A program made the position numbers and the translations under genes. A DNA stretch of 40,772 nucleotides, taken from the UHGV virus genome UHGV-0354473, one strand, 5' to 3'. The notes beneath the pieces were generated by a model that saw only the letters and a list, made by a program, of their open reading frames with translations, was not told the origin of the DNA and searched no databases. Numbering within the stretch: the stretch's first letter is position 1; every line of letters starts with the position of its first letter. This DNA comes from a virus. Below are positions 1,774 to 31,359 of the stretch, in pieces.

Positions 1774-1802
1774 ACTATAATATGTATCCACTCATATTGC
1801 AA
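1774..1802 (-). promoter_or_regulatory. Leftward sigma70-like promoter TTGCAA-17-TATAGT embedded in the conserved element ATATCTGTAAATGTTGGTTGCAATATGAGTGGATACATATTATAGT
   Basis: -35 TTGCAA at 1797-1802, 17-bp spacer, -10 TATAGT (minus strand) at 1774-1779. About 40 bp are near-identical to the element at 25341-25392. Confidence 0.5.
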
Positions 1803-1809
1803 CCAACAT

Positions 1810-2301
1810 TTACAGATATTTTGCGATATCTGCGATCGAGCACTGGACGATGCACGCACCGTCGGGGTTGGGCCGGCGGCCAAAGATGATGATCTGCGAA
1901 TCGCGGTTATTCTTCGTCGCCGCGCGCTCGCCGGTTCGGGCGTGGATAAACTGGATGCGCTCGGTTAGCTGAATGATGGTATTCGCCTCCCGGCGCGCAA
2001 TATCCATCCACTGCGTAGCAACGGCCAGGTGCAGGAGCAACACCGTTTTACGGTACAGCGCGGCGTGCTGGAACCACGGCAGCGGCTTCGAGTAAGGCGG
2101 GTTACACCATTTCCACGCCGCGGGCCACTCGATGCCAAGGGCGCTGTTCTGTTCGGTGTAGTACCGCGCGCAAAGGGCGTTGTGATCGGCTGCCGCCATG
2201 TCGTAGCGGAAATTAAACCGCTCATTGAGCGGCTCGAATATCTCCGGTGGCGAGCGCCAGCAATCTTTATCCTCCGGCGCCGTGTTTGATTTGTCAGCCA
2301 T
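1810..2301 (-). CDS. DNA N6-adenine methyltransferase, phage Dam family (PF05869-like)
   Basis: Motif IV NPPY (WCNPPYSK) and the characteristic NALCARYYT..GIEWP context. Its start overlaps the helicase stop. Confidence 0.8.
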   Translation of the reverse strand: MADKSNTAPEDKDCWRSPPEIFEPLNERFNFRYDMAAADHNALCARYYTEQNSALGIEWPAAWKWCNPPYSKPLPWFQHAALYRKTVLLLHLAVATQWMDIARREANTIIQLTERIQFIHARTGERAATKNNRDSQIIIFGRRPNPDGACIVQCSIADIAKYL

Positions 2302-3760
2302 GGTTACCTCTGGAGCGTTTCATATATTCCATAAGCACGTCCTGGACTGATTTTTTATCGCTGGTGCGAGAAACAACAGCCTCGTCGAGCGTACCCTTCG
2401 CCTGGATAAGATAGATAAATACCGGGCGCGGGTGGCCGGATTGCATTTGGCGTACTGGTCCTATACGTTCTATAACCTGGGCGTGATGCTCAAAATTCCA
2501 GGTTGGGCTAAAGAAGGCCAAATGGCAGCCGCCGTCCTGCAGGTTAAGGCCGTGACCAGCCGATGCCGGGTGGACCAGTAACACGTCGATTTTGCCGGCG
2601 TTCCAGCGGTCGATCTGCTTATTACCGGCAGCGCCTTTTTTCAGGTCCTCGGCGAACGGGAACCGCTTTTTGATGCGCGCCAGGTCGTGCTTGTACTGGT
2701 AAGCCACCAGGAGCGGGGCGCCGGCCAGCTCGTCGATGATGGAGTCCAGCGCATCCAGTTTCGCATCGTGGATTTTCTCCCACTCGGAGGAGCGCTCGCC
2801 GTCTTCGTTGGTGACGTATACCGCGCCGCTGGCGATCTGCAGGCATTTTGACGTGCGGGCTGCCGCGTTCGCCGCTTCTACCTCGCCGTTTTCCAGCTCG
2901 GCGAATAGCTCCTTTTCCATCTGGTCGTAAATTTTGCGGGCCTTGCACGGCAGGTCGACCAGCACCGGGACCAGCACCGGCTCGTCACAGCCGAAGAACT
3001 CGGCAGCGTCAACCGTCAACGAAATATCCTTCATTGCCCGGTGTATCTCATCGTCTGCGCCTTTGCGCGGCCGGTAGCCTTTCGCTGCGTGGTGGTCGCC
3101 TTTTGACTCGGTGATGAACCAGCGATCGGTAAATGCCGCGTAAGACGTCCCGAGGCGCTCGCCGGCGTCGATAAACCAGTTTTGCCCCCACAGGTCCTTT
3201 AATCCGTTAGGCGACGGCGTACCGGTTAGATTGATGAAGCGCTTAACGCGGCCCCATGCTACCCGGCTTAATGCCTTCGCACGTTTGCTGCCGCCGCTCT
3301 TTGACCTGTACGATTTCAGCTTGGTTGATTCATCGGCAACGATAACGGTAAACGGCCAGTCGTCCGGACCATAAAGCCCGGTCAGCCAATCTATGCACTC
3401 GTAATTAAGGCATATAACATTAAAATCCTCTTCCAGTGTAGCGACGCGGTGCGCGGCCGGGCCGGTGGCGTCACCGACCCGCAGGTTAGCGAATTGCCAT
3501 TTATCCTGTTCGGCCGGCCAGGTACCGGACGCGACGCGCAGCGGCGCCAGGATAAGTACGCGGTCTTCGCCGTCGACGAGATCGCCAGTCTGAAAAAGGC
3601 GGTCCAGGGTCCACATGACCGAGCCCGTCTTCCCCGAGCCCATTGTGGCCCACACATTACAGCGCGGATGGCGCAGCATGTGCCGCGTCATCGACTTCTG
3701 ATAGGGTCGGCGTTTGAACCGGCTCATACGGCTACCCATCCCATAGCATAACCACCCCAT
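2294..3760 (-). CDS. SNF2/RAD54-family ATP-dependent helicase
   Basis: RRPYQ Q-motif near the N-terminus, Walker A MGSGKT, DExx VIVADESTK and C-terminal helicase motifs. Alternative start ATG at 3727 gives ATGA coupling to the upstream ORF. Confidence 0.85.
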   Translation of the reverse strand: MGWLCYGMGSRMSRFKRRPYQKSMTRHMLRHPRCNVWATMGSGKTGSVMWTLDRLFQTGDLVDGEDRVLILAPLRVASGTWPAEQDKWQFANLRVGDATGPAAHRVATLEEDFNVICLNYECIDWLTGLYGPDDWPFTVIVADESTKLKSYRSKSGGSKRAKALSRVAWGRVKRFINLTGTPSPNGLKDLWGQNWFIDAGERLGTSYAAFTDRWFITESKGDHHAAKGYRPRKGADDEIHRAMKDISLTVDAAEFFGCDEPVLVPVLVDLPCKARKIYDQMEKELFAELENGEVEAANAAARTSKCLQIASGAVYVTNEDGERSSEWEKIHDAKLDALDSIIDELAGAPLLVAYQYKHDLARIKKRFPFAEDLKKGAAGNKQIDRWNAGKIDVLLVHPASAGHGLNLQDGGCHLAFFSPTWNFEHHAQVIERIGPVRQMQSGHPRPVFIYLIQAKGTLDEAVVSRTSDKKSVQDVLMEYMKRSRGNHG

Positions 3761-3933
3761 TTATTTCGAGCACCGTACAGGTTAAAGTCGTGCCCGAGAT
3801 GTGTCCAAATGGCGTATTTTTTAACACTGGACGTGATCAAGGTATATGGCTTGAATGTGGTTTTTGTATAAAAACGCGTCCCGTCCGGGCAGTCTATTAA
3901 CCGGCGCAGACGATAGTGAGGCTTAGGAGTCAT
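3724..3933 (-). CDS. Hypothetical 69-aa protein
   Basis: ATG at 3933. Four-nt overlaps with both neighbours suggest a translationally coupled chain. Confidence 0.4.
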   Translation of the reverse strand: MTPKPHYRLRRLIDCPDGTRFYTKTTFKPYTLITSSVKKYAIWTHLGHDFNLYGARNKWGGYAMGWVAV

Positions 3934-4112
3934 TTCAACACCTCCACGATATCAGAATATTCCAGTATCACGACCGTCCCGCTTTCGAACTGGATAACGA
4001 GGATCTCCTGCTTCTGCGCGTCAAGCGACCGGAAGGCGTCGAAAACCGTTTCCGGGACATCGCCGACCTGCAGCACGTCGCCACGTTTGATTGCTCCTGC
4101 TAAAACTCTCAT
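3930..4112 (-). CDS. Hypothetical 60-aa protein
   Basis: ATG at 4112 and ATGA overlaps with both neighbours. Confidence 0.4.
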   Translation of the reverse strand: MRVLAGAIKRGDVLQVGDVPETVFDAFRSLDAQKQEILVIQFESGTVVILEYSDIVEVLK

Positions 4113-4372
4113 TCGGTTTCTTCCTGTACTGGTTTTCTCTTAACCCGCTGGCGCTCGCGTTCGGCTTCCCGGCGGCACTGTTTGCAGACTGCGCGGAAAC
4201 CGTCCACGCTGCGCCCACTGTAGCGATGGAATTCGCTTAACGGCTTACGCTTACGACACGGCCCGCTACAGCGCTTGGTAACGGCGGCGAGCGCCTCATC
4301 AGGGGCCGCCGACAGCGAGCCATATTTTTCTACCAGCTCCCGGCCGGCCTTTCTCAATTTAGGTTTAGGCAT
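4109..4372 (-). CDS. Small basic zinc-ribbon protein (CxxC...CxxC), likely DNA-binding
   Basis: CSGPC...CKQC cysteine pairs and a K/R-rich sequence. ATG at 4372 with AAGGAGG SD. Confidence 0.5.
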   Translation of the reverse strand: MPKPKLRKAGRELVEKYGSLSAAPDEALAAVTKRCSGPCRKRKPLSEFHRYSGRSVDGFRAVCKQCRREAERERQRVKRKPVQEETE

Positions 4373-4399
4373 GGTTTGTCCTCCTTAGCAACCAACATA

Positions 4400-4690
4400 C
4401 TAAACACTATAGCGCAATTCTGCAACCAATTCGTTAACCTGTTCCTTGCTGCCGACGATGCGAACTATGGCGCCGCGCTGGCGCATGCGTTTGTGCTCGC
4501 GGGCCTGGTGCGGGTCGGGGCCGGTGCGCTCGTCTTTCTTCACCTCCACGAACACCACCAGGCCGCCGGGCAGAATGACCAGCAGATCGGGACATCCGTT
4601 GCGCCCCTCGTATCGGATTTTTCTTACCAGGCCGCCGAGTTTTTTAAACTCGGCCATTGCGTAAGCCTGTACTCTTCCCTCCGGCGTCAT
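4400..4690 (-). CDS. VRR-NUC domain nuclease (PD-(D/E)XK fold)
   Basis: GCPDLLVILPGG...VFVEVK matches the VRR-NUC D..E.K catalytic core. Confidence 0.75.
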   Translation of the reverse strand: MTPEGRVQAYAMAEFKKLGGLVRKIRYEGRNGCPDLLVILPGGLVVFVEVKKDERTGPDPHQAREHKRMRQRGAIVRIVGSKEQVNELVAELRYSV

Positions 4691-5289
4691 TGCCGCTCTT
4701 CTCTTATTTTACGAATGGCGGGGCCTATGTGGTTAATCATCTCGGAAACTGTAAACCTGTTATTTCGAGTCAGATTACACAGAGCACATGCGGGCACACA
4801 ATTATCGACGGAATGCGGCAACGTGTTATCTTTTCGATCGGCACCAGACCAACCAATAAAGCCGCAATATGAGCAAGGCTTATGTACAAAATTTGCCAAT
4901 ATATCGTCACATGTCAGCGTTGAAATTAGCCCTTTCTTTGCGTCGTCCCGCATTGCTTGGTACGCGACGGACTTACACCATTGATATACATTACGCTGCT
5001 TATATGCCCGTCTCTCAGCGTTACAACACTCACGGCAATCCTTTCTAATATGGGCGCCGTTTGTAGTGCCTCCGGGGCGAAAATTCTCACGGGTAAGAGG
5101 CTTTCTTTTACCGCATGTGCGGCATTGAACGATTTCGCCAGTGAATTCTCGCCATACTTCCCGCACCGGTTTCCCTCCGCGGGCTTTCTGCCGTCGGTCC
5201 GCGGCGTAAGCTTTTGTACAATCTCTGCACCATGTCATGCCCTTATTGAAATGCTCTTTTTCCTCGCCACATTTAGTACATATTTTCAT
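4687..5289 (-). CDS. HNH homing-type endonuclease with N-terminal Cys-rich zinc finger
   Basis: CSYCG...DRKDN...H...N..PAC..CN HNH signature. The start was moved to ATG 5289 (MKICTKCGEE), which has a GAGGTGG SD. Confidence 0.7.
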   Translation of the reverse strand: MKICTKCGEEKEHFNKGMTWCRDCTKAYAADRRQKARGGKPVREVWREFTGEIVQCRTCGKRKPLTRENFRPGGTTNGAHIRKDCRECCNAERRAYKQRNVYQWCKSVAYQAMRDDAKKGLISTLTCDDILANFVHKPCSYCGFIGWSGADRKDNTLPHSVDNCVPACALCNLTRNNRFTVSEMINHIGPAIRKIREERQ

Positions 5290-5357
5290 TAGTCCACCTC
5301 GTACAAGAAATAATGCGAGCATAATAGCCCGCATTCTCCAAACCTTCAACGTATTCT

Positions 5358-7544: not shown

Positions 7545-7744
7545 TCCAGATCCTCGTCGGTTGCATCCAGCTGATCGATAATGTCCAGCAACTCTCGCCG
7601 CATTTGCTGCAGCTCTTCGGATACCAGTTGAACGGATGACGCAATGCCTTTTTGACGAAGATATTGCCGGAAGCCCTCGACGTCCAGCGGTTCGCCGACG
7701 GGGATCCGCGTCTCATGGGGGCGGTTTCGGTTGTGTTTATACAT
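7541..7744 (-). CDS. Hypothetical 67-aa protein with acidic C-terminus
   Basis: ATG at 7744 and ATGA overlap with the polymerase start. Confidence 0.45.
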   Translation of the reverse strand: MYKHNRNRPHETRIPVGEPLDVEGFRQYLRQKGIASSVQLVSEELQQMRRELLDIIDQLDATDEDLE

Positions 7745-7791
7745 GGTTCACGCTCCGGATATGAAAAAGCCCGCTTTCGCGGGCCTTGATT

Positions 7792-8538: not shown

Positions 8539-8617
8539 TTTTCGTTTCTCACTTTTTGCGATTCTCCCGGAAACCGCCGGGCCGGTATAAATACGTTAAT
8601 TTAGTTGGTTGCAGATG

Positions 8618-11416: not shown

Positions 11417-11432
11417 AACGGTTTACTCCTGG

Positions 11433-11456: not shown

Positions 11457-11463
11457 AGATCGG

Positions 11464-11940: not shown

Positions 11941-11984
11941 GGTAAATCCTCGTTTAGTTAAGTTGGTTGCGTTTCGGCGATGTA

Positions 11985-12014
11985 ATAATATGTCCAGATA
12001 AATCAGGATTGCAA
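11985..12014 (-). promoter_or_regulatory. PL-like leftward promoter TTGCAA-18-TATTAT
   Basis: -35 at 12009-12014 and -10 (rc ATAATA) at 11985-11990. It drives 11940 leftward. Confidence 0.5.
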
Positions 12015-12081
12015 GCGCTTTTTCAAATTAAATTGCAGCACCGTTAAAATCAACGACTTAATGATAATCACCAGAGATCGC

Positions 12082-12109
12082 TTGATTATGTGCGGTTAGA
12101 TACTATAGT
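12082..12109 (+). promoter_or_regulatory. PR-like rightward promoter TTGATT-16-TATAGT
   Basis: -35 at 12082-12087 and -10 at 12104-12109, upstream of the Cro-like gene, which has an AAGAGG RBS. Confidence 0.5.
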
Positions 12110-12148
12110 ATTGCAGACGTCAACCTATTTACTAAGAGGATTCCTATA

Positions 12149-12385
12149 ATGGCTACAGCACGCCGTAACCCTTTCCAGCTCCGCGTCAATGCGCGGATGA
12201 AACACCTTGGCCTGCGGCAGCAGGATGTTGTAATGCGCGGGGGACTTTCGCAATCGGCTTTATCTTTCGTGCAGAACGGGCGAACCAGAAGCCTGAGTAT
12301 GGAGAACATCTTTCGCCTTGCGGACGCGCTGGAATGCGATCCGCGCTGGCTTGCGCTTGGGGAAGGCTCCCCGGATAAAAAATAA
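12149..12385 (+). CDS. HTH XRE/Cro-family transcriptional regulator, 78 aa
   Basis: LRQQDVVMRGGLSQSALSFVQNG is a helix-turn-helix of HTH_3 type. It is the first rightward gene in the divergent control region. Confidence 0.8.
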   Translation: MATARRNPFQLRVNARMKHLGLRQQDVVMRGGLSQSALSFVQNGRTRSLSMENIFRLADALECDPRWLALGEGSPDKK

Positions 12386-12450: not shown

Positions 12451-14751
12451 ATGCCACGGTTAAAATCAAAAATATCCTATTCGCTCGGCCGGCATAAAAC
12501 CGACAATCGACCCAAAGCCTTCCTATCCTCCTGGGATGAATTTCTCGCGGACCTTCTGGAGATTGGCTCCGATCCGGTCCTGGGCGTATCTATCAGCGGC
12601 AGCGAATCAGAAGAACGTTACGAAGAGCTGAAAGGGCGGTTGCCGTATGTCGCGGCGGAGTTTGCGAACAACCGGCGCAATAACCCTAACGTCGCGTCCC
12701 GCTCCCTGCTGTTTATCGACATCGACAAAGTATCCAGCAAAGAGATCCGCCGGGTGCGTCGCGCGCTGGAGGATGGCGGCTTTACTTTCTTCGCGTACTC
12801 TACCTGCGGCGACCGGCACGACCTGAAAGGCGGCATAAAGTCGCGGTCCTGGCGATTCATTATCCCCACGGATCGGCCGATGCTGGCGGACGAGATCTGG
12901 CCGTGCCAGCATAAATTCATCGATATGCTCGGGCTGACCGGCGCAAAAGGGATGGACGAAACTGCTTTCCAGCGCGCCCGCCTTATGTTCGCCCCGCACA
13001 TTGAGGCCGAGACCATCGACCACCGCGGCGCGCCCGCCAGCATCCGCCGGATCCTGCGCCACCGGTTCGACGTGCCGGACGAATCGGGCTCGACCAACTG
13101 GACCGACGAAGCGCTGGAGAACGCCAGCGAGAACAGCCAGGCTATCGCTGCGTGGTGCTGGGAGATGGGCCTTGAACCCCTATCCTCTGGCCGCGGCTTC
13201 GCCATACAGTGCCCGAACCACTATCAGCACAGCGACAACGACGGGACCGACGGCAGCACGGCGATCATGATGCCGGATGCGCTTCACCCCGAGGTTCGTT
13301 TCGCGTGCCAGCATGACCACTGCAAAAAGCACAACACCCACCAGCACATGATGCTGCGCCTTTGTGGCGTGCCGGACCAGTATTTGCCGGAAGCCCACAA
13401 TATCAGCAAAAAGCAGATCGCCGAACTGCTGCCGGATTTGCCCGAAGAAGAGGTGACATACGTCTACGAGGCCGAAGTAATGGCGGCGCTGGACGGTCCG
13501 TCCGCCGGTCAGTGTACCGACGAGGACCTGGACGACGACCCGGTTACCCTGTTCACCAAGCGCGATCCCATTATCGAGGGACTGATCAATTTCAAGTCCA
13601 CGTGGTACGCCGCCGGCGAGTCAAATATCGGTAAGTCGTTTTTCGTCCTCGGTCAGATGGCGGCTATTTCCGCCGGGATCCCGTTCGGCGGACGGCGTGT
13701 CGTGCGCGCGCACAACTTTTACTTCGATGCGGAAGGTGGAGAGACCAGCCAGCACCGTAAGCAGGCGCTGCAGAAGATGTATCAGGACGACCTGGACTGG
13801 CTGCATGTCATCGACCTGCAGGATAAAGGCATCGACATTACCGACGCGCGGGGCGTGAAAGAGGTATGCAAGATTATCCGTGACGCGGCCGGAGACGCCC
13901 CCGTTGGCTTGGTGGCCTTCGACTCGCTTAACCAGACCGTAGCCATGCGCAGCTCGGCTAAAAAGCCGTTCGATGAGAACTCCCCGACAGATATGGGGGA
14001 AATTGTCCGCGCGCTGAAACAGATCTCCGAGACCACCGGCGGCAGCGCGGGCGTTATCCACCACCCGGCGAAGTCGTCCTCGGGCCAGCGTACCGCCCGC
14101 GGCTCCGGCGCGCTGCATGGCGCCGTCGACTATGCCTACTTCATCGAGCAGCCGGACGAGACCAAACCGCACCAGATCAACCTGTATCACGAAAAAGCGC
14201 GTAACGGCGTCAAGCAGTCCCCCCGCGGCTTTGTCCTGCTGAAATGTAAAATCGACGTCCCCCAGGCGCACGCCGACCGGGTAGATGCGTACCTGTCCAC
14301 CGCCGCCGGCCCGGACTTTTCCGATCAGCTGTCCGGCTGGACGCCGAAACCGCTGGAGATGTCGCCGCGTGACGAAACGCTTTATCTGGTGCCGGTCGCC
14401 ATGGCGCCATTCGAATCGCCCGCTGCCGAAGTCGCCCGGGAAGCTGTTAAGTCTGCAGGCGGTGCCGGGCCAAAGAATAAAGCCGAGGAGGTGATGGTCG
14501 CCCAGCTTGAACTGCTGGAGGACAAGCCAGAGGGTTATTCGCCCTACGCCATCGGCACCGCAGGCGGAAACAAGTTCACCAGCGGCAACTATAAAAAAGT
14601 GCTGGAAGAACTGGTGCGACGACGGGTTTTAGTGCATGGCCGAAACCCGAATACAGGCGAAGTTTACAACCAACAATACAGGCTGCCGACTGGCTTGAAC
14701 GATTTCGACCCACCGGAATTGGTTGCAAGTGATGAAGACTTAAACTCGTAA
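12451..14751 (+). CDS. Primase-polymerase (AEP-type)/helicase (RecA-like AAA_25) fusion replication protein with zinc motif and C-terminal extension
   Basis: N-terminal LLFIDID (DxD) and FAYSTCG..H motifs, a central Cys/His cluster (CPNHYQH...CQHDHC), Walker A GESNIGKS and Walker B LVAFDSL. Confidence 0.85.
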   Translation: MPRLKSKISYSLGRHKTDNRPKAFLSSWDEFLADLLEIGSDPVLGVSISGSESEERYEELKGRLPYVAAEFANNRRNNPNVASRSLLFIDIDKVSSKEIRRVRRALEDGGFTFFAYSTCGDRHDLKGGIKSRSWRFIIPTDRPMLADEIWPCQHKFIDMLGLTGAKGMDETAFQRARLMFAPHIEAETIDHRGAPASIRRILRHRFDVPDESGSTNWTDEALENASENSQAIAAWCWEMGLEPLSSGRGFAIQCPNHYQHSDNDGTDGSTAIMMPDALHPEVRFACQHDHCKKHNTHQHMMLRLCGVPDQYLPEAHNISKKQIAELLPDLPEEEVTYVYEAEVMAALDGPSAGQCTDEDLDDDPVTLFTKRDPIIEGLINFKSTWYAAGESNIGKSFFVLGQMAAISAGIPFGGRRVVRAHNFYFDAEGGETSQHRKQALQKMYQDDLDWLHVIDLQDKGIDITDARGVKEVCKIIRDAAGDAPVGLVAFDSLNQTVAMRSSAKKPFDENSPTDMGEIVRALKQISETTGGSAGVIHHPAKSSSGQRTARGSGALHGAVDYAYFIEQPDETKPHQINLYHEKARNGVKQSPRGFVLLKCKIDVPQAHADRVDAYLSTAAGPDFSDQLSGWTPKPLEMSPRDETLYLVPVAMAPFESPAAEVAREAVKSAGGAGPKNKAEEVMVAQLELLEDKPEGYSPYAIGTAGGNKFTSGNYKKVLEELVRRRVLVHGRNPNTGEVYNQQYRLPTGLNDFDPPELVASDEDLNS

Positions 14752-15055
14752 AATAATACGTGTTGCGAGTCTTGCGAATCGACTCGCAAGACTCGCAAAA
14801 TTTTGCGAATGAAATTGCGAGTAATGTTTTCAATAACTTAGGTGCTTTTTGTTGGTTTTCGCAAAAATGGATTGCGAGTCGGTAGGTAAGTGATTGATTT
14901 GGTGGGGGATTTTGTCTCGCAAAGTGAGTCGATCACGTTATTGCGTCTCAGGCGAGCTGCCCTTTGGCGGGCGTCGCCAAGAGAACGCAGTGATCGTATC
15001 ATATTTTTTGCGAGTTTGCAATAGCTGGAATGTAAATATCACGGCAGCAAGTACC
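14745..15055. repeat. Non-coding regulatory module copy 1: ACTCGCAA iterons (six or more), a GATC-flanked GC hairpin and a conserved TGATCGTATCAT-TTTTTGCGAG...TGTAAA core. Homologous to 24240-24530.
   Basis: Similarity to copy 2 starts at the last codons of the upstream gene (AACTCGTAA). The 42-bp iteron block 14781-14822 differs by 2 bp from 24267-24308. Confidence 0.7.
14763..14798. repeat. 36-bp near-perfect palindrome TTGCGAGTCTTGCGAATC|GACTCGCAAGACTCGCAA, made of four ACTCGCAA/TTGCGAGT half-sites
   Basis: 15-bp perfect inverted arms with a single mismatch in the full 18+18 alignment. Confidence 0.8.
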
Positions 15056-15304
15056 TGATACGGGGTGGCGGGATAATTTTTCTGGTTGGTTGCGGTGATT
15101 CTGGCAGCGGGTTACGTTGGATTTAGTGTCGGTAATGGGTGGTAACCTATATGGCTAATAGGCTCTCGTATAGCAGGTCTGGCGGGCATTGGGGATGGCG
15201 GGCTCTATTAAGATTAGTCCTAGCGAAATCCGCACTCCACGCGCACAAGTAGGCTAGTAGACTACCATACCAGTTACCGCGGCCCTTATTTTTGCTATCC
15301 GGTA

Positions 15305-15334
15305 TTGCAACCAACATTGATTTAGACATATACT
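15305..15334 (+). promoter_or_regulatory. Rightward promoter TTGCAA-18-TATACT for the early small-gene operon
   Basis: -35 is the first hexamer of the TTGCAACCAACA element (15305-15316). -10 is at 15329-15334, and the first gene has a GAGGAG RBS. Confidence 0.5.
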
Positions 15335-16653: not shown

Positions 16654-17093
16654 GCCTTGCAACCGACATTCTGAAACGCCTGAATAAGGCCGCGCCGCCG
16701 AAATCGGCAGAACCTGAGGTGCAACAAGTGGTACCAGTGCCACTATCGAAAAAGCCTGATACGATAGCGGCAGGGCCAACACGGTCATATAACCGGGATG
16801 AAATGTCTATTGCTAATGCCAAACTTAGAGCGGCGGGTAAGCCACGTCGTGTAGTGTACAGCAAGCCAACTGATAAGTTATTTGGCGTCCGCCTAATGCG
16901 TAGGAGCGGATTATATAGCGCGCGCCCGCGGATAGATGGCGTGGAAACCTGTCTCGGTGAATTTGCTAAGCCTGAGAGAGCTGGAATAGCCGCAAGGCTG
17001 TATTATTTATGGCACAGCAGAGGGTTTACGGACATTCCGAGGGGGATAGCTTGCGGGTACATTGACTTTGCGCGCTTCGACCCATTCCCATAA
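16650..17093 (+). CDS. AP2-domain DNA-binding protein
   Basis: GVRLMRRSGLYSARPRIDGVETCLGEFAKPERAGIAARLYY resembles an AP2/ERF-type domain as found in phage HNH-associated proteins. Confidence 0.55.
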   Translation: MSLATDILKRLNKAAPPKSAEPEVQQVVPVPLSKKPDTIAAGPTRSYNRDEMSIANAKLRAAGKPRRVVYSKPTDKLFGVRLMRRSGLYSARPRIDGVETCLGEFAKPERAGIAARLYYLWHSRGFTDIPRGIACGYIDFARFDPFP

Positions 17094-18276: not shown

Positions 18277-18345
18277 GACCGCCACTTGTAATGTTGGTTG
18301 CAATATGGTTATACTCATATCGTCAATCACACAGGAGCAAACGAA

Positions 18346-18615
18346 ATGAGCAAGGCATACATCGTAATTATCCGGCGCGCATGGTGTAACGAAGGTGGGC
18401 ACGGTATCGAATATTCATCCGACCTCATCCACTATGAGACCCGCAATGGAGCCATATCGCACGGTTTTCGGGCTGTGGATAGCGACGACTTCAACATCGG
18501 CGTAATCGAGGGCGGCAAGTTGATTTCATTTGACTGGATGGGCAAGCCGGTTGGAGAAAGCGGAGACACGCTGGCGCAGATTGCCGAGCTAATCGGTCTG
18601 GAGCGTGCAGAATGA
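18346..18615 (+). CDS. Hypothetical 89-aa protein
   Basis: ACAGGAGCAAACGAA-ATG strong SD. The upstream promoter-like region contains the TGTTGGTTGCAA element. Confidence 0.5.
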   Translation: MSKAYIVIIRRAWCNEGGHGIEYSSDLIHYETRNGAISHGFRAVDSDDFNIGVIEGGKLISFDWMGKPVGESGDTLAQIAELIGLERAE

Positions 18616-23121: not shown

Positions 23122-23201
23122 CCCATTTAATTAACATAGTGATCGGCGTTCCTGCCGTCATAACCATTATTCTTTTGGCGATAGTGTTGGTGGGCGCATG
23201 A
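23118..23201 (+). CDS. Tiny 27-aa hydrophobic peptide (MTHLINIVIGVPAVITIILLAIVLVGA)
   Basis: ATGA overlaps with the portal stop and with the next gene's start. It is entirely a single TM helix. Confidence 0.3.
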   Translation: MTHLINIVIGVPAVITIILLAIVLVGA

Positions 23202-24247: not shown

Positions 24248-24530
24248 TAAATTACGCGTAACGGTGACTCGCAAGACTCGCAAAATTTTGCGAGTCGAAT
24301 TGCGAGTATAAATATCAAGGACTTACGCTCATTTCGTTGGTTGCTGCCGTTTTAGTTTGCGAGTGGTGAAATTAGGTGAGTAAAATCAAGGAGTTACAAC
24401 GTGGAAGGCTGAATCGATCACTTCAATTGCTTGTTGCGCGCCCGCCCTAGCGGGGCGTCGCTCAAAAGCGAAGCTGATCGTATCATTTATTTTGCGAGAA
24501 ATCAACGGCAGCAATTGTAAAGGTGGCGAT
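24240..24530. repeat. Non-coding regulatory module copy 2, homologous to 14745-15055: four ACTCGCAA half-sites in palindrome, a GATC-flanked GC hairpin and the TTTTGCGAG...TTGTAAAGG core running into the Rz RBS
   Basis: Iteron block 24266-24308, TCGATCAC at 24414-24421, CTGATCGTATCAT at 24474-24486 and TTGCGAG at 24492-24498. Confidence 0.7.
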
Positions 24531-25026: not shown

Positions 25027-25040
25027 CGGGGCGTTTTTTA
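25017..25040. terminator. Bidirectional rho-independent terminator shared by Rz1 (+) and the antisense mini-operon (-)
   Basis: GCCCC-TATAA-CGGGGC hairpin followed by GTTTTTTA. The minus-strand ORF stop lies in the hairpin. Confidence 0.6.
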
Positions 25041-25161
25041 TCAACCAGGCCAGGCCCCAGCAGACGAAGGCGATGGTTAGCCACGCTGCCGGGAGATAGA
25101 CCAGAAACACCCGGCGCCGTTGCTGGTACTTCGTCGGGTTACGCTTTGCCATTGGTTTCAT
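25021..25161 (-). CDS. Small 46-aa membrane peptide (MKPMAKRNPTKYQQRRRVFLVYLPAAWLTIAFVCWGLAWLIKNAPL)
   Basis: Not in the ORF track (<60 aa). ATGA coupling to the upstream basic ORF, a basic N-terminus followed by one TM helix, and a terminator immediately after. Confidence 0.45.
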   Translation of the reverse strand: MKPMAKRNPTKYQQRRRVFLVYLPAAWLTIAFVCWGLAWLIKNAPL

Positions 25162-25310
25162 CGGCCGAATCTCCTTGCGGCTTTATGAATCCATTTTGGT
25201 GTTTTCCCAAGACTCAAAATGGTGTACGCAGTAGCGAGACGACGCGCACAACGACGGAGGCGGCGTAAGTCGACCTTTCCGGATTTACGGTATTTAGTTG
25301 ATACAGGCAT
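25158..25310 (-). CDS. Small 50-aa highly basic protein (MPVSTKYRKSGKVDLRRLRRCARRLATAYTILSLGKTPKWIHKAARRFGR)
   Basis: Not in the ORF track. Strong SD AAAGGAG 8 nt upstream of ATG 25310. It is transcribed from the conserved leftward promoter 25341-25369. Confidence 0.45.
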   Translation of the reverse strand: MPVSTKYRKSGKVDLRRLRRCARRLATAYTILSLGKTPKWIHKAARRFGR

Positions 25311-25340
25311 AGCTATTGCTCCTTTGTTGTTGGTTTCTTA

Positions 25341-25369
25341 AATATAATATGTCTCCACTCATATTGCAA
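25341..25369 (-). promoter_or_regulatory. Leftward promoter TTGCAA-17-TATATT; about 40 bp near-identical to the promoter element at 1774-1808
   Basis: -35 at 25364-25369 (part of TTGCAACCAACA at 25364-25375) and -10 (rc AATATA) at 25341-25346. Confidence 0.55.
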
Positions 25370-25471
25370 CCAACATTTGCAGATATATTGTTAATACTTG
25401 CGCTGCCCTGTATATTTAGCGTATGTAAATCCGGGTGGCCCGGATTCATAAAGACCAGGGGTCTACGTACT

Positions 25472-26167: not shown

Positions 26168-26170
26168 AAT

Positions 26171-27139
26171 ATGTCTCTCTCGAACATGAAGGTTTACGAC
26201 CGCCAGATTTACGGCGCTACCATCGAACTGCTCGGCCAGAAAACCGACCAGTTTAACGCCAACTCTGGTGGCGCTATCGTGCTGTCCTCGCAGGCGTGGG
26301 AAGGTGATTTCACCAAAGAATCTTTCTACAACCAGATCGCGTCCGCGCAGCGCCGCGTTGACCGCTACGCCGCTATCGCTACCCAGGCGGGCACCAACTT
26401 AACCCAGGGTGAAAACGTTGGTGTTAAAGTCGCCGGCGGCTTTGGCCCGATCGTATTCGAGCCGTCCCAGCTTACCTGGCTGCAGCGTAACCCGACCGAA
26501 GCGGTTATGGCGATCTCCGAAGGTTTCGCCGACGCCCTGCTGGCGGACCAGCTTAACACCGCATTAGCGGCAGCGGTTGCCGCGGTATCGGGCCAGACTG
26601 CGCTGGTTAACGATGTCTCTGCTAGTGCCGGTATCAGCCTCGGTGCACTGAATAACAGCCACGCTAAATTCGGCGATCAGTCTCAACTGCTGGTGACCGA
26701 TGTTATGACCGGCGCGGTATATCACAAGCTGATCGGTCAGGCGATCACCAACGCTAACCAGCTGTTTGTCTCCAGTAACGTGCTGGTTGTCGATATCCTC
26801 GGCAAGCGTTACGTGGTTACCGACTCCCCGGCCCTGTATGAAGCAGGCACGCCGAATAAGTCGAAAGTGCTGTCTGTCGTGGCGCAGGGTATCGTCGTAG
26901 ACAATACCAGCGACATCATCACCAACATGGAAACGTCGAACGGTAAAACCCGTATCGAAACCACCTGGCAGGCGGATTACTCTTTCGGTCTGAAACTGAA
27001 AGGTTACGCCTGGGACGTCACCAACGGCGGCAAATCTCCGACCGATGCCGAACTGGCTACCTCGTCCAACTGGGACAAAGCCGTTACCGAGAACAAGCAT
27101 ACCCTGGGTACGCTGGCCATCGTCGACGCAGACCTGTAA
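26171..27139 (+). CDS. Major capsid protein
   Basis: 322-aa protein after the scaffold, followed by a strong terminator, in the conserved late-gene order. Confidence 0.75.
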   Translation: MSLSNMKVYDRQIYGATIELLGQKTDQFNANSGGAIVLSSQAWEGDFTKESFYNQIASAQRRVDRYAAIATQAGTNLTQGENVGVKVAGGFGPIVFEPSQLTWLQRNPTEAVMAISEGFADALLADQLNTALAAAVAAVSGQTALVNDVSASAGISLGALNNSHAKFGDQSQLLVTDVMTGAVYHKLIGQAITNANQLFVSSNVLVVDILGKRYVVTDSPALYEAGTPNKSKVLSVVAQGIVVDNTSDIITNMETSNGKTRIETTWQADYSFGLKLKGYAWDVTNGGKSPTDAELATSSNWDKAVTENKHTLGTLAIVDADL

Positions 27140-27140
27140 T

Positions 27141-27166
27141 AAGTGGGGGCTTCGGCCCCCTTATTA
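27141..27166 (+). terminator. Strong rho-independent terminator after the major capsid gene
   Basis: GGGGGC-TTCG-GCCCCC hairpin followed by TTATT. Confidence 0.65.
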
Positions 27167-27178
27167 ACTGGAGCCGTT

Positions 27179-27400
27179 ATGTTAAAAGTCAAATACGTCG
27201 TAATGCCGATCACGGTCGAGCAGAAGAAAGAATATCATCGCCAGGGCTTTCGCGTTGTCGATGCGCGGTTCGCGCCGGCCGATGCGGTTATCGAAACCCA
27301 TGCCGACGGCCTGGAGCGCACTGTTACCATCCAGGGCGACACCGACAAACCAGCACGTAAAGCGCGCCGCAGTAAATCCGCCGAACAGCCGGAGGAATAA
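27179..27400 (+). CDS. Hypothetical 73-aa head-associated protein
   Basis: ATG at 27179 with GGAG SD. The track's longer frame spans the terminator. Confidence 0.5.
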   Translation: MLKVKYVVMPITVEQKKEYHRQGFRVVDARFAPADAVIETHADGLERTVTIQGDTDKPARKARRSKSAEQPEE

Positions 27401-27403
27401 CCG

Positions 27404-27913
27404 ATGTCGCTGATCGTCGAGGATGGCAGCATTGTAGCAGGGGCGGATAGCTATGTTAGCTTGTCGGACGCCCGCGCACTCGCGGCTAAATATGGCTGGG
27501 AGTTGCCCGCCGACGATACGGAAGCGGAGCAGGCGTTACGCAATGGCACTGGATATGTTGGCCTGCAGGAACCCGCGATGTGCGGACGCAGAGTCTCTGC
27601 GGCGCAAGAACTGGCTTACCCACGGCAGGGAGTTACGCTGTACGGCTTTGACATCGCCAGCAACACGATCCCCGCAGCTGTGATCCGCGCACAGGTGGCC
27701 GCTGCCGTTGAGTACGGAGCCGGAACAGACGTTCGGGCCACCAACGACGGCCGGGCTACTTCACTGGAGCGTGTAGAAGGCGCGGTGACGGTACAGTATT
27801 TCAATAACGGCAACAATGGCACCAGTGTCGTTATTACCGCCGCTATGGACGCGCTGGGCCCTTTGCTTTGCGGCATGAATAACGGTTCATCGTTTAACGT
27901 GTATCGGGGCTGA
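27404..27913 (+). CDS. Head-tail connector protein (gp6-like)
   Basis: N-terminal ...VSLSDARALAAKYGWELPADD resembles the gp6 connector N-terminus. Position supports the call. Confidence 0.55.
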   Translation: MSLIVEDGSIVAGADSYVSLSDARALAAKYGWELPADDTEAEQALRNGTGYVGLQEPAMCGRRVSAAQELAYPRQGVTLYGFDIASNTIPAAVIRAQVAAAVEYGAGTDVRATNDGRATSLERVEGAVTVQYFNNGNNGTSVVITAAMDALGPLLCGMNNGSSFNVYRG

Positions 27914-27914
27914 T

Positions 27915-28529
27915 ATGGCGCTTACCAAAACAGAAATGTTCACCAAAATAGCAACGGATCTGGCGGATAACACGTCCGGAGCTATCACGCCGGAGGTTTT
28001 GCGCGGTGTTTTAACACAACTGGCGGATTCCCCCATCTATGCGGCCGCCGGCGTGAAAGAGGTTGAGGTGTTGCGTGCGACATCTACCGTTACGCAGGCG
28101 CCTACTGCCGTTGATACCCCGCTGCAGGTTGCTTTCGGTGCTGCGCAAGGCTCCCCAACGGACCCGGTTTCTATCTCGGCAGCAGGACTGGTGACGTTCA
28201 ACGTCGCGGGTAATTATGCGGTCCGTATCAAGCTGCAGGCAGGACGCACCGGAGCCAGCGGCACGTCGATTCTGTTATCTCGCCTCCTTCTTGCCGGTGC
28301 ACAATATGGTTCTCCCGCTGCGACTAAACTGGTAAGCGCCGACGTGACAATCCCGATCGAGTCTCGCGTGGTTATCAACGCCACCGCCGGGCAGACTTTC
28401 GCAGTGCAGATCATGCGAGACAGCGCCGGGACTAACTTCGGCGGTATTTATCCGCAGGCGGCGACGGTCACGGCCTGGGGAACTGCGCCTTCCGGCCTTC
28501 TCGTTATATCTCATCTGGAGCCGGTATAA
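27915..28529 (+). CDS. Structural (neck or head-decoration-like) protein, 204 aa
   Basis: Tightly packed ORF in the head-tail joining block. Confidence 0.5.
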   Translation: MALTKTEMFTKIATDLADNTSGAITPEVLRGVLTQLADSPIYAAAGVKEVEVLRATSTVTQAPTAVDTPLQVAFGAAQGSPTDPVSISAAGLVTFNVAGNYAVRIKLQAGRTGASGTSILLSRLLLAGAQYGSPAATKLVSADVTIPIESRVVINATAGQTFAVQIMRDSAGTNFGGIYPQAATVTAWGTAPSGLLVISHLEPV

Positions 28530-28888
28530 TGTCCAGTGCATTCAGCAAGCGCATGCAGAAAACAGCGACGCGCCTTTTAGGCAAGTACGGCAGCACTGTT
28601 AATTTGATTCGCGCCGGGGCTAAAGTGTGGGATCCGGATGAAGGCGAATATGTTGAATCGCCGCCGACCACGATTCCGTTAACATCGGTCCCTGTACCTG
28701 TTAACGTGGCGCTGGTGAACGGAACTACCATACAAGCTGGCGATATGGTAGTGAAGGCCGATCATAGCGTGCTGCCGAAGATGGAAGATAAGGTGTCGTT
28801 TAACGGTGCCGAATGGTCAATCGTCGCTATCGAAACGAAGATGGTAAACGGCGACGTGATCGCGTGGTTTATTCAGGTGCGAAAATAA
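28529..28888 (+). CDS. Head closure / neck protein, 119 aa
   Basis: Position and size. ATGA overlap with neighbours. Confidence 0.5.
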   Translation: MSSAFSKRMQKTATRLLGKYGSTVNLIRAGAKVWDPDEGEYVESPPTTIPLTSVPVPVNVALVNGTTIQAGDMVVKADHSVLPKMEDKVSFNGAEWSIVAIETKMVNGDVIAWFIQVRK

Positions 28889-29325
28889 TGGGCTCTTTTT
28901 CGCTTGATGTCCGGGCATTCGTCGAGAAGACGAAGAAAAATAACGAAACCGTTATGCGCCAGGTATCGCTAAAGCTGTTCTCGGCCATTATTAAAGCCAG
29001 CCCAGTAGACACAGGACGTTTCCGCATGAATTGGCAAGCCGCGTCCGGTGCCGCTCCCGCCGTTGGGGTAAAAAACGGTGTTGACCCCTCCGGGTCCAAA
29101 GCCATTGCTCAGATGGCCAGTGTTGTGTCCCGAGACCCGAGCTGGTACGAGTTCACGCTAGTGAATAACCTCCCATATGCGCCAGTGATTGAATACGGGG
29201 GCTACCCGGGAGACGGACCGAATACGGTTGGCGGATTCTCAAAGCAAGCGCCGCAAGGCGTTGTGCGCGTTAATGTGCTACGATTCCAGCAACTGATAGA
29301 TGAAGAAGCCGCGAAGGTGCGATAA
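28888..29325 (+). CDS. Tail-completion/neck protein, HK97 gp10-like
   Basis: FRMNWQ motif and position. ATG at 28888 overlaps the upstream stop. Confidence 0.55.
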   Translation: MGSFSLDVRAFVEKTKKNNETVMRQVSLKLFSAIIKASPVDTGRFRMNWQAASGAAPAVGVKNGVDPSGSKAIAQMASVVSRDPSWYEFTLVNNLPYAPVIEYGGYPGDGPNTVGGFSKQAPQGVVRVNVLRFQQLIDEEAAKVR

Positions 29326-29738
29326 TGGGTTACTTTGAGGATTTAACGAAAGCGTTCGACATCGCATTGAAAGCCTTCGGCACGACCAATAATATCGCCG
29401 TTGCGCTGGAGAATATCGATGCGCCGACGTCCACCGATACGCCGTATCTGGCGAGCTATATGCTGCTGGCCGATACCGAGCAGGCTGACCTGTTCTGGAC
29501 GGAACAGCGCGCTGGCGTGTACCAGGTGGACATTAACTATGCACAGGCGAAAGGTAGCGCGCCGATCAATAAAATGGCAGACTTATTGAATGCGGCGTTT
29601 AAAGCGGGATCTGCAGTGTCGCGCAACGCAATTTGCGCCGAAGTGCAATCGGTGAGCCTGGGGCCTCTGATAGTGCAAAACGGATGGGCCACTCGCCCTT
29701 TATCCATTAATTTCATAGCATTTACTGCGAGGTTATAA
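29325..29738 (+). CDS. Tail terminator-like protein, 137 aa
   Basis: Position immediately upstream of the major tail protein. Confidence 0.45.
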   Translation: MGYFEDLTKAFDIALKAFGTTNNIAVALENIDAPTSTDTPYLASYMLLADTEQADLFWTEQRAGVYQVDINYAQAKGSAPINKMADLLNAAFKAGSAVSRNAICAEVQSVSLGPLIVQNGWATRPLSINFIAFTARL

Positions 29739-29740
29739 AA

Positions 29741-30907
29741 ATGGTACAGCCATATAAGGGCGCGCTTACCGCACAGTTTTACGTTGCGGAGACAACGCCA
29801 GGAACTACACCGACCAGCCCGGTATGGTCGCCGCTGCGCAACACTGGTGGCGTGCCGGCGGTTACCCGCGACGCGCTTACATCCAACGAGCTTGACGGCA
29901 GCCGGGAAACATCTTTCATCCGCACCGGGAATAAACAGGTCTCCGGAGAGTATGCGATCGAGCTGAGTTCCCGCAGCCAGGATGATTTTCTTGCTGGCGC
30001 GATGACGTCTTCCTGGGTGTCCGGCGTAACTGGCGCCGCCGTAGACGTCGCCGTTGACGCAGGGGCGAAAACGTTCACACGTTCGGCGGGCAACTTCCTT
30101 ACGGATGGCGTCGAAGTAGGTGACCTCATCCGCTTCGCTGATCTGCCTGGCAATAACGGGCTGCCGTTTATCGTCACCAGCGTTAACGACACCGTAGTGG
30201 CCGGAGCCGCCATTCAGTACCCATTAACTACTGCAGCCGCCGCGGAGACGGACTACGCTACGGGCGACAAGCTGGAAACAGGTAACTTGTGTAAGACCTT
30301 CTCGATCCTTACCTGGTTCAAAGGCCAGTGCGGTAACCCGGACAGCTACGTTATTACCCGTGGTGTTGAGATCTCCGGCTTCACCATTGAGCAGGCGGTG
30401 AACGCCATGGTTACCGGTTCTTTCCCGTTCATCGGCATGACACAGGAGATCCTTACCGCGCCGCCTGCCGGTTCGGACTTCTCACAGATCACCTTTGACG
30501 CGGAGCCTTTCTCGTCGGTTGATGTATCAGTGTTCGACGGTATCCAGCCGCTTAAGTGCGATACGCTGACCTTTACCAACGACAACGGCGCATCGGCGCA
30601 ATTCGAGCTGGGGAATAACAGCGTGGCGTTTGTCGAGCGCGGCCGGGCGGTCAACACCTTCTCTATCGCCGGTAAACTTTACGATATGGCGATGATCCAG
30701 AAGTTCATTAACGAGACACAGGTCGAAATTAACTCGATTCTGTCCGGTGTGAAGGGCGCAATGTCTATTTCGATGAAACGCGCCGAGCTAACGGCAGTAA
30801 CGCCGGAGATCGGCGGCGCCGAGTCGGTTACGCAAAGCATCGAAGGCCAGGCGACGGGTAATAGCCAGCAGTCGTCTATCGTCATTCAGCGACTTGTGTA
30901 CGCGTAA
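29741..30907 (+). CDS. Major tail (tube) protein, 388 aa
   Basis: Position before the chaperone pair and TMP. A bidirectional terminator follows. Confidence 0.6.
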   Translation: MVQPYKGALTAQFYVAETTPGTTPTSPVWSPLRNTGGVPAVTRDALTSNELDGSRETSFIRTGNKQVSGEYAIELSSRSQDDFLAGAMTSSWVSGVTGAAVDVAVDAGAKTFTRSAGNFLTDGVEVGDLIRFADLPGNNGLPFIVTSVNDTVVAGAAIQYPLTTAAAAETDYATGDKLETGNLCKTFSILTWFKGQCGNPDSYVITRGVEISGFTIEQAVNAMVTGSFPFIGMTQEILTAPPAGSDFSQITFDAEPFSSVDVSVFDGIQPLKCDTLTFTNDNGASAQFELGNNSVAFVERGRAVNTFSIAGKLYDMAMIQKFINETQVEINSILSGVKGAMSISMKRAELTAVTPEIGGAESVTQSIEGQATGNSQQSSIVIQRLVYA

Positions 30908-30908
30908 A

Positions 30909-30935
30909 AGAAAGGGGCCGTTAGGCCCCTTCCCT
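30909..30935. terminator. Bidirectional terminator between the major tail gene (+) and the antisense cassette (-)
   Basis: AGGGGCC-GTTA-GGCCCCT hairpin. The minus strand is followed by TTCTTTT. Confidence 0.6.
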
Positions 30936-31106
30936 TAGCGCTTTAAGCATTTTCAACGCCATAGGCACGGAGGAAGTTCCAAGTATTTCAACATCGCCGC
31001 CGCGGTCAAGTACATGAAAACGGCAGTGGGTTAAGGTAATATACACCTCAGAAAATCGGTGATTCTTCATTTCTTCCAGTAAATCAGCCATAAGACTAAT
31101 AGCCAC
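30921..31106 (-). CDS. Small 56-61-aa protein (MADLLEEMKNHRFSEVYITLTHCRFHVLDRGGDVEILGTSSVPMALKMLKALREGA), second gene of the antisense cassette
   Basis: GTG at 31106 or ATG at 31091. Its stop lies in the terminator hairpin. Confidence 0.45.
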   Translation of the reverse strand: MAISLMADLLEEMKNHRFSEVYITLTHCRFHVLDRGGDVEILGTSSVPMALKMLKALREGA

Positions 31107-31284
31107 GTTTCGCCCTCTCTTCTGTCAGTTTAACAATTTCGCTTTTTACTTCCGGTTTCGCATTCGCCAGAATCTGGCGCAGCAATTCAACCTGTTCGCT
31201 TGACCGCGTAGCGTAGCGCACCACGAAGAACAGCACGGCCAGGTTTAGGCCCATCGCCAGAATTGCTATAATGAATTGCGTCAT
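31096..31284 (-). CDS. Small 62-aa membrane protein (N-terminal TM plus charged helical tail), first gene of the antisense cassette
   Basis: ATG at 31284 with AAGAGGA SD. The TM segment is FIIAILAMGLNLAVLFFVV. A divergent promoter region lies upstream. Confidence 0.5.
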   Translation of the reverse strand: MTQFIIAILAMGLNLAVLFFVVRYATRSSEQVELLRQILANAKPEVKSEIVKLTEERAKRGY

Positions 31285-31359
31285 GGTATATTCCTCTTTG
31301 AAAGTTCTATATGTATATAATCATATCGCAACCAACAAATCAACCATAGCGGGTTAAAA

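Follow-up and report, generated by a model that had tools for sequence, protein, structure and literature searches.

A Short Asymmetric Box at Promoters and beside an Origin-Like Region in Guernseyvirinae, Dhillonvirus, and Eiauvirus Phages: a Candidate Operator/Iteron

INTRODUCTION

The virus genome UHGV-0354473, analyzed here as a single stretch of 40,772 nucleotides (the window), carries a 12-bp element, TTGCAACCAACA, that recurs in short gaps between transcription units and includes the self-complementary hexamer TTGCAA. A first-pass annotation of this sequence raised the question of what such an element is for: does it define a phage promoter class, with TTGCAA serving as a −35 hexamer in either direction, or is it a site recognized by some additional factor? 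We find that the element, referred to below as the box, is non-random, mostly intergenic, promoter-overlapping, adjacent to an origin-like region, conserved across genera, and selected at the DNA level. The explanation that we put forward, giving it about an even chance of being correct, is that the box is an asymmetric operator/iteron for a phage-encoded DNA-binding protein of the replication module.

The window is the nearly complete genome of a virulent siphophage of the subfamily Guernseyvirinae, with 85 to 91% identity to the Klebsiella phages VLCpiS11a and 37P2 and ∼70% identity to the Serratia phages Tsm2 and Otaku. Its replication operon runs leftward, from ∼11940 down to 200; the rightward arm consists of a Cro-like helix-turn-helix (HTH) gene (12149-12385) and the primase-helicase gene (12451-14751), followed by small early, lysis, packaging, and structural genes. 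The annotations of these four relatives include no integrase and no phage RNA polymerase or sigma factor, and Pfam scans of 34 window proteins (a subset of the open reading frames) gave no match to either of the latter two. The single transcription regulator recognizable in the window by Pfam is the 78-aa Cro-like HTH_3 protein. Rfam and tRNA scans of the window returned no matches. Small virulent siphophages of this kind (Guernseyvirinae, Dhillonvirus, Eiauvirus) have been isolated widely with therapy in mind and also serve as probes of defence systems; none of the three groups is known to encode its own RNA polymerase or sigma factor.

RESULTS

Conserved core and genomic placement of the box

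The box is clearly not a product of chance, as had been surmised: the exact 12-mer occurs four times in the window, at 1797(+), 15305(+), 18292(−), and 25364(+) when read as TTGCAACCAACA, against 0.00 expected from 100 shuffles, and ten copies are found with at most two mismatches (3.06 expected). Counts of its sub-words in the window place the signal away from the hexamer. The 9-mer GTTGGTTGC is present in 10 copies (0.41 expected) and the 8-base core TTGGTTGC in 13 (1.3 to 1.45 expected), compared with 14 copies of TTGCAA alone, for which 8 are expected. Since the hexamer is barely enriched and motif positions 11 and 12 vary (AA, AG, GT, TA, GG, TG), the conserved part is (T)GTTGGTTGC and not the palindromic TTGCAA. 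With a G+C content of 50%, the box is not A/T-rich.

Each of the positions initially reported does hold a copy, including four (11961, 15084, 24335, and 4420) that match at 9 of 12 positions and retain an exact TTGGTTGC. That list, real in all its entries, did not include the core copy 38767-38778, a match at 16657-16668 that agrees at 11 of 12 positions but has its core broken, or two half copies, TGTTGGTT, at 14850-14857 and 25328-25335. The claim that the element is intergenic and promoter-associated was borne out, and the motif is far from equally frequent in genes: non-coding DNA makes up 6.8% of the window yet fully contains 10 of the 13 core copies (binomial P = 4.7e-10). Of the three coding copies, two (4422 and 14719) are each inside the final 30 to 35 bp of a gene. 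The third, at 38769 (TATTGGTTGCGT, 38767-38778, minus strand), lies inside the tail-fibre gene and is possibly a chance occurrence. VLCpiS11a, 37P2, and six relatives from IMG/VR carry the copies unchanged at orthologous positions, while the flanking spacers vary. Another over-represented word, GCTGCCG, occurs 67 times without strand bias and was attributed to composition.

We found no description of the motif in the literature on the 12-mer, the 9-mer, or the promoters of Guernseyvirinae, Jerseyvirinae, and Dhillonvirus, and the eiAU genome paper mentions neither repeats nor promoters. An IMG/VR scan for AATGTTGGTTGCAA produced mostly chance single matches, yet recovered five relatives; matches to paired boxes in the same database came for the most part from tandem repeats unrelated to the box.

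Position relative to predicted promoters

The idea that TTGCAA provides a −35 in either direction, 17 to 18 bp from good −10 hexamers (TATAGT, TATATT, TATACT), holds for 3 of the 13 core copies and leaves the other ten unexplained. In the copy at 1797-1808 (TGTTGGTTGCAA, minus strand), the hexamer is the plausible −35 of a leftward TTGCAA-17-TATAGT promoter (1802-1774), with the box centred at about −36; the copy at 25364-25375 (minus strand) likewise gives the −35 of TTGCAA-17-TATATT (25369-25341), the predicted promoter of a small leftward gene (25158-25310) whose 5′ untranslated region (UTR) contains the inverted half copy 25328-25335. The third copy, at 15305-15316 (minus strand), contributes the −35 of a rightward TTGCAA-18-TATACT (15305-15334), the remainder of the box falling in the spacer; the Tsm2 orthologue of this promoter lacks CCAACA. 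The 1797 and 25364 regions are paralogous over ∼50 bp, and among eight relatives promoters of this type keep the −35 block, AAATGTTGGTTGCAATAT, and the −10 block, ATATTATAGTTAGTTCA, while the 10-bp spacer between them varies, a pattern that suggests the footprint of a real promoter.

The other core copies have no −10 at 16 to 18 bp from the hexamer in either direction; there, the box is found in the spacer, beside the −10, or within the first 3 to 18 transcribed bases. It occupies the spacer in TTGTAA-18-TATACT (18286-18315; box 18292-18303, plus strand) and in TTGATT-18-TATATA (31343-31314; box TGTTGGTTGCGA, 31326-31337, minus strand), the latter being the predicted promoter of a leftward YebO-like gene (31096-31284). 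The −10 assignments at 18292 and 31326 are supported by their distance to the ATG, 29 to 30 nt, which equals that at 25364. The copy at 8603-8614 (AGTTGGTTGCAG, plus strand) is directed against transcription in the spacer of the leftward promoter of the gene for single-stranded DNA-binding protein (SSB) and abuts its −10, TAAATT (8603-8598); SO-1 is arranged in the same way at this promoter, and Tsm2 carries another element. Two copies fall within the first transcribed bases, near a ribosome-binding site (RBS). One, at 4386-4397 (TGTTGGTTGCTA, minus strand), adjoins the RBS of the Lar-like Zn-ribbon gene at ∼+3 to +14 from TATAGT (4411-4406); the other, at 11961-11972 (AGTTGGTTGCGT, plus strand), opposes transcription from the early leftward promoter TTGCAA-18-TATTAT (12014-11985), where it covers ∼+7 to +18. 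A further copy at 4420-4431 (AATTGGTTGCAG, minus strand) lies within the final codons of the endonuclease gene, with TATAGT 8 bp downstream. This two-copy layout (4386/4420) recurs in eiAU-183, and SO-1 has there a box and a degenerate second copy. The copy at 24335-24346 (CGTTGGTTGCTG, plus strand) lies in the second iteron region (24260-24500; see below), ∼11 bp upstream of TTGCGA-18-TAAAAT.

Measured from the best −10, the box centres are at approximately −36, −36, −30, −27, −24, −24, −18, +8, and +12; copies fall within ∼−54 to +34 of predicted promoters, mostly between −36 and +12. Nine copies are oriented with transcription and four against it. Such a mixed orientation and variable register fit an operator and do not fit an element contacted by the polymerase. 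An UP-like role, suggested in the first-pass annotation, is not consistent with the base composition of the box or with its centres, which are outside the −40 to −60 range, a phage-specific promoter class is disfavored by the lack of a fixed register, and a promoter for a phage RNA polymerase by the absence of any such enzyme from the annotations of the relatives. The parallel suggestion of an extra factor-binding determinant captures, in our view, the main point of the box.

At three of these sites, the conservation ends abruptly. The promoter, leader, and RBS in 18286-18378 are conserved up to the ATG, as are those in 1730-1810 and 25310-25375; past the ATG at 18286-18378, the window, VLCpiS11a, 37P2, and one IMG/VR relative each encode an unrelated gene. 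From this alignment pattern, accessory genes appear to be exchanged precisely at the start codon. The small leftward genes 25158-25310, coding for a 50-aa product, and 31096-31284 are inserted in the rightward structural operon, each with its own box-bearing predicted promoter, and look like morons. The product of the latter is YebO-like (PF13974, E = 1.2e-5, just below the Pfam cut-off); in 37P2, this position is occupied by a "superinfection immunity protein."

The box in related phages

The search of related phage genomes proposed earlier finds the box in VLCpiS11a, 37P2, Tsm2, Otaku, SO-1, and eiAU-183. It is thus a feature common to three phage genera rather than one peculiar to this phage, and its carriers infect Klebsiella, Serratia, Sodalis, and Edwardsiella. 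Tsm2 and Otaku have 12 core copies each, mainly at the primase-helicase 3′ end (four), in the early divergent region, and ahead of the gene that follows the endonuclease gene. Dhillonvirus SO-1 contains 21 copies of TTGGTTGC, 16 of them intergenic, which often form direct pairs 12 to 35 bp apart and in one case a palindrome, TGCAACCAAtaggTTGGTTGCA; they are typically 1 bp from a TATAnT or over +1, and their orientation relative to transcription is also mixed. Eiauvirus eiAU-183 has 23 core copies (17 intergenic), with tandem 12-bp units ahead of a TATAGT; eight of its copies, pointing either way, form an array that spans the primase-helicase stop codon and extends beyond it. In both SO-1 and eiAU-183, the core is at least 10-fold over-represented, and the box is mostly found 1 to 6 bp from a −10 or over +1, in addition to arrays that have no promoter. 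The single copies in Jerseyvirus Ijeoma and Kagunavirus KMB36 correspond to the chance level.

Three layouts are conserved between genera: GCAACCAA(c/g)TAAATT at the SSB promoter, two copies at the boundary between the endonuclease and the next gene, and one copy in the early divergent region, at the first leftward gene. At orthologous sites, the box orientation flips between genomes. When box variants were compared with protein content across 11 genomes, each genome proved to use one variant: TTGGTTGC in the window, Tsm2, SO-1, and eiAU, and TGTTGGCTG in phiEap-2 (seven copies) and VSiP (four copies), neither of which has GTTGGTTGC. This regularity favors a co-evolving, phage-encoded binder over a host factor.

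At other promoters of Tsm2 and Otaku, AATAGAATACTATT is found where the window has the box; it matches the "phage promoter" repeat of Kagunavirus (PMC7203180, Table S4; PMC9825357). The presence of AATAGAATACTATT at orthologous promoters of Tsm2 implies that the spacer position behaves as an exchangeable specificity module. An AATAG-N4-CTATT sequence, promoter-associated and distinct from the box, overlaps the −10 in Tsm2/Otaku, Kagunavirus, and Jerseyvirus, with sites at 225, 4171, 10097, 13722, 21072, and 36835 in Tsm2 and at 33650-33780 in Kagunavirus; in Tsm2, it stands at positions that are taken by the GTTGGTTGC box in the window.

A gene for a Dam-family N6-adenine methyltransferase (PF05869; 1810-2301, minus strand in the window) is found in all seven genomes with TTGGTTGC (the window, VLCpiS11a, 37P2, Tsm2, Otaku, SO-1, and eiAU) and is missing from the two TGTTGGCTG genomes and two box-free genomes. 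This co-occurrence may be a phylogenetic coincidence.

Primase-helicase 3′ end and iteron regions

In all six box-carrying lineages, boxes mark the end of the primase-helicase gene or the stretch immediately downstream of it. In the window, this cluster consists of an inverted pair (TTACAACCAACA ... AATTGGTTGCAA, 14664-14728) within the final 90 bp of the gene, the half copy at 14850-14857, and a full copy at 15084-15095 (GGTTGGTTGCGG, plus strand) in the long non-coding region that follows the gene. The same homologous codons in the acidic tail of the primase-helicase read TTGGTTGCA (ELVA) in the window and CAGCCAACA (AQPT) in phiEap-2, with the boxes in opposite orientations, which argues that selection acts on the DNA and not on the protein sequence.

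These boxes adjoin iteron arrays, except in eiAU, where the eight boxes are accompanied by no other iteron. The origin-like iteron region of the window (B1, 14755-15020) carries TTGCGAGT units in both orientations and a long hairpin and is paralogous to the second region, 24260-24500; the two, both non-coding, are 74% identical over ∼300 bp and dense in TTGCGAGT(C) in either orientation, including the perfect palindrome GACTCGCAAAATTTTGCGAGTC. The iteron differs by clade, with TGTGCGGAA in Tsm2, GCGGACAA in phiEap-2, GGGGGAGA in VSiP, and GCGGGACA in SO-1, and in the GenBank record of SO-1 the corresponding segments are labeled as repeats, "region A" and "region B." By analogy with the P4 ori and crr, the two regions look like an origin and a second cis-acting region; the origin assignment derives from the iteron arrays and the repeat-region note in the SO-1 record.

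A long imperfect hairpin closes each iteron region (14920-15010, −40.6 kcal/mol; 24405-24495, −33.5 kcal/mol). Its outer stem is CGATCAC...GTGATCG, with a T-run after it, and the inner stems, although not the same in the two paralogues, still pair. Tsm2 has equivalent hairpins, and Rfam gave no match for those in the window. They could function in termination, as a small RNA, or as a structure of the origin. In addition, three ATTGCA(A/G) words in the early divergent region (12000-12120) are similar to the TTGCGAGT iteron (gATTGCAAGC, aATTGCAGCA, and tATTGCAGAC), one of which overlaps the −35 of the leftward promoter and another abuts the −10 of the rightward one; these may be operators for the Cro-like HTH protein.

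Candidate binding proteins

Across the 11 genomes, the box is tracked only by a closely related type of primase-helicase (46 to 59% identity) and by the Lar-like Zn-ribbon protein. The primase-helicase (12451-14751, plus strand), a candidate binder of the box or of the iterons, combines an AEP PrimPol domain, a RepA-type helicase domain, and a C-terminal region (residues ∼677 to 746) that is modeled as H-strand-H-H-strand-strand over residues 677 to 744 (mean predicted local distance difference test score of 64 to 85 in 10-residue blocks), a topology typical of a winged helix. This predicted assignment rests on the topology of the secondary structure, as a fold search with the full model returned only the helicase and PrimPol domains; a homologue search with the C-terminal fragment gave no matches, while the full-length query did. 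Between the PrimPol and helicase domains, residues 254 to 291 (13210-13325) contain a C-x5-H ... C-x-H-x-H-C pattern that is invariant in 38 homologues and probably represents a zinc site.

The second candidate, the Lar-like Zn-ribbon protein with a basic tail (4109-4372, minus strand), is encoded in all box-carrying genomes tested and absent from both box-free genomes. Its co-variation with the upstream box was considered and found uninformative, given that VSiP-type phages have the gene without an upstream box and that this Zn-ribbon is a widespread N-terminal module of HNH endonucleases. The Cro/CI-type HTH_3 protein (12149-12385, plus strand) was rejected as the sole binder: SO-1 has the box without the HTH protein, and the box-free Jerseyvirus and Kagunavirus have the HTH protein. 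It more likely pairs with the palindromic TTGCGAGT iterons or the ATTGCRAG sites.

DISCUSSION

Under the operator/iteron explanation, the asymmetric 9- to 12-bp box, (T)GTTGGTTGC(AA), would be a DNA docking site for a sequence-specific protein of the replication module. Its copies overlie the core of predicted host-type (sigma-70) promoters, whether on the −35, within the spacer, next to the −10, or across the first 3 to 18 transcribed bases, with the adjoining TTGCAA doubling as the −35 at three of them. Binding would occlude or modulate RNA polymerase at most phage promoters, most likely as repression or timing, although activation is possible at the sites centred at −36. The same protein would also mark the origin region, at the end of the primase-helicase gene beside the iteron array.

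Several points weigh against this explanation. The promoters are consensus predictions, from a consensus scan and a table of registers, and the predicted rightward promoter of the HTH and primase-helicase genes (12082-12109) carries no box. Some of the 5′ UTR copies (AACCAACA before the RBS) could be merely unstructured leader sequence. The 9-bp site is assumed to be bound by a monomer, and it is unclear how pure repression would permit expression of the late genes past the 18292 promoter. Two candidate binders remain, the primase-helicase with its predicted winged helix and the Lar-like protein, and their phyletic profiles are confounded by phylogeny. Moreover, in the primase-helicase 3′ regions of 32 IMG/VR relatives, the sequence of the winged helix varies in step with a second iteron that is specific to the clade (TTGCGAGT, GCGGGACA, GGGGGAGA, GCGGACAA, TGTCGGAA, or AGGGATAA), while the box stays TTGGTTG, TTGGCTG, or absent. 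The winged helix is a better match for the second iteron, and its proposed co-variation with the box was rejected.

Could the box instead be purely a promoter element, that is, an extended −35 or upstream determinant of a phage promoter class contacted by the host or a phage-modified RNA polymerase? We consider this unlikely, if well short of negligible. It would account for the three TTGCAA-17/18-TATAnT promoters, with their conserved −35 and −10 blocks and variable spacer, and for the fact that 8 of the 39 promoter-like sites predicted by software overlap the box or come within ∼35 bp of it. However, it would have to accommodate a non-conserved TTGCAA, a register drifting from −36 to +12 in mixed orientation, a sequence that is not A/T-rich, copies within the primase-helicase gene, and the SO-1 and eiAU boxes next to the −10, over +1, or in promoter-less arrays. 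A host protein, such as a nucleoid or global regulator or a replication factor recruited to phage promoters and the origin, is an improbable ligand. The conservation of the box in phages of four host genera is in line with it, as is the fact that no single phage protein can be assigned as the binder. Yet the variant switches genome-wide: phiEap-2, a phage of the close K. pneumoniae relative Enterobacter (now Klebsiella) aerogenes, has seven copies of TGTTGGCTG and none of GTTGGTTGC, the reverse of the window, and related phages of the same hosts (Jerseyvirus and Kagunavirus) lack the box. The box is not known to fit a consensus for DnaA, IHF, Fis, CRP, marbox, TyrR, PhoP, CpxR, sigma-54, or Tus/Ter.

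The cassettes at 18292, 1797, and 25364, in which conservation stops at the ATG and the genes that come next are unrelated between relatives, together with the paralogy of the 1797 and 25364 regions, would also be expected if the box were a module boundary or linker, kept for recombinational cassette exchange or carried along with duplicated promoter cassettes, with no binding role of its own. This is quite improbable, as the core recurs without the cassette in varied contexts, in both orientations, and inside the primase-helicase gene, is conserved between genera with unalignable flanks, and, at 9 bp, is too short for homologous recombination. A mainly replicative function, with the box as an initiator or helicase-loading site at multiple transcription-assisted origins and little effect on transcription, seems very unlikely indeed. 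The arrays at or after the primase-helicase 3′ end in every box-carrying genome, above all the eight eiAU copies with no other iteron, speak for it, as do the boxes adjoining the stretches flagged as repeat regions A and B in SO-1; against it, most window copies are single and placed precisely over core promoter elements rather than arrayed.

A bolder version of the operator/iteron explanation, and a fairly improbable one, is that a DnaA-like phage protein (the PrimPol-helicase or the small Zn-ribbon protein) binds the 9-bp box at the origin and at nearly all promoters; replication would multiply the sites and titrate the protein, switching expression from early to late without a dedicated late activator, a scheme that would be common to Dhillonvirus, Eiauvirus, and part of Guernseyvirinae. 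If true, coupling of replication and transcription by the box would be a simple timing device, of which we found no report for this group. In any case, the box is a concrete handle: it predicts a promoter map, nominates a few candidate regulators, and offers a mutable target for expression engineering. Even as just a promoter-associated repeat, it would be useful for annotation, since the regions that it marks are now annotated as featureless gaps.

Comparison with known systems

The kind of element described here is known; in the literature searched, there appears to be no earlier description of this motif family, of its occurrence in three genera, or of its association with the primase-helicase 3′ end. 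Stoperators of mycobacteriophage L5 and other cluster A phages, reportedly described by Brown et al. in 1997 (cited in PMC11447400), resemble the box in being asymmetric 12- to 13-bp sequences with a −35-like hexamer, present in many copies in short intergenic gaps; one L5 copy overlaps an early promoter, and the box is likewise promoter-overlapping. Stoperators all point the same way with respect to transcription, and their ligand is gp71, the lysogenic repressor of a temperate phage. In contrast, the box is mixed in orientation, its phage is virulent, no gp71-like repressor was recognized in the window, and copies are found at an origin-like array. A short TTGC-containing element at the −35 region of some promoters also brings to mind the T4 MotA boxes and lambda CII sites, at which an activator binds in place of the −35 or astride it. 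Unlike the MotA box (at ∼−30) and the CII site TTGC-N6-TTGC, which straddles the −35, the box has no fixed position or orientation with respect to the −10, and no TTGC-N6-TTGC arrangement occurs at its copies.

Lineage-specific short repeats at most operon boundaries have been described in other virulent enterobacterial siphophages reliant on host RNA polymerase. The T1-like phage TLS carries 21 copies of a 21-nt repeat, aaATAGCACnnnTTGnTAAAA, all oriented with transcription and ∼76 nt upstream of start codons, for which stoperator, enhancer, or UP roles were suggested (PMC11447400), and the PHIRE element of Kagunavirus, TAATAGGGTACTATTCA, is palindromic and overlaps the −10 (PMC7203180, Table S4; PMC9825357). 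The box shares their distribution and differs from them in its sequence, its asymmetry, its occurrence in both orientations and in a variable register, and its additional presence at the primase-helicase 3′ end.

As in P4, a primase-helicase with a predicted C-terminal DNA-binding domain is combined with two separated, paralogous iteron regions (14755-15020 and 24260-24500). The type I iterons of the P4 ori and crr are bound by the C-terminal domain of the alpha primase-helicase, the helicase of which belongs to a class different from the RepA/RecA type found here. This analogy suits the TTGCGAGT iterons better than the box. The box itself is best likened to DnaA boxes and the iterons of plasmid Rep proteins, which serve both an origin and promoters, as the box would, and to the L5 stoperators; all of these are asymmetric sites that serve as operators. 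It differs from DnaA boxes in showing no sequence similarity to TTATCCACA, and from plasmid iterons, which are ∼19 to 22 bp long and regulate only the rep gene, in its length and in covering most predicted promoters of the genome. Its resemblance to DnaA boxes and Rep iterons is that of an asymmetric 9-mer, found in either orientation, clustered beside an origin-like region and scattered at varied positions over predicted promoters, with a replication protein containing a predicted winged-helix domain encoded next to it.

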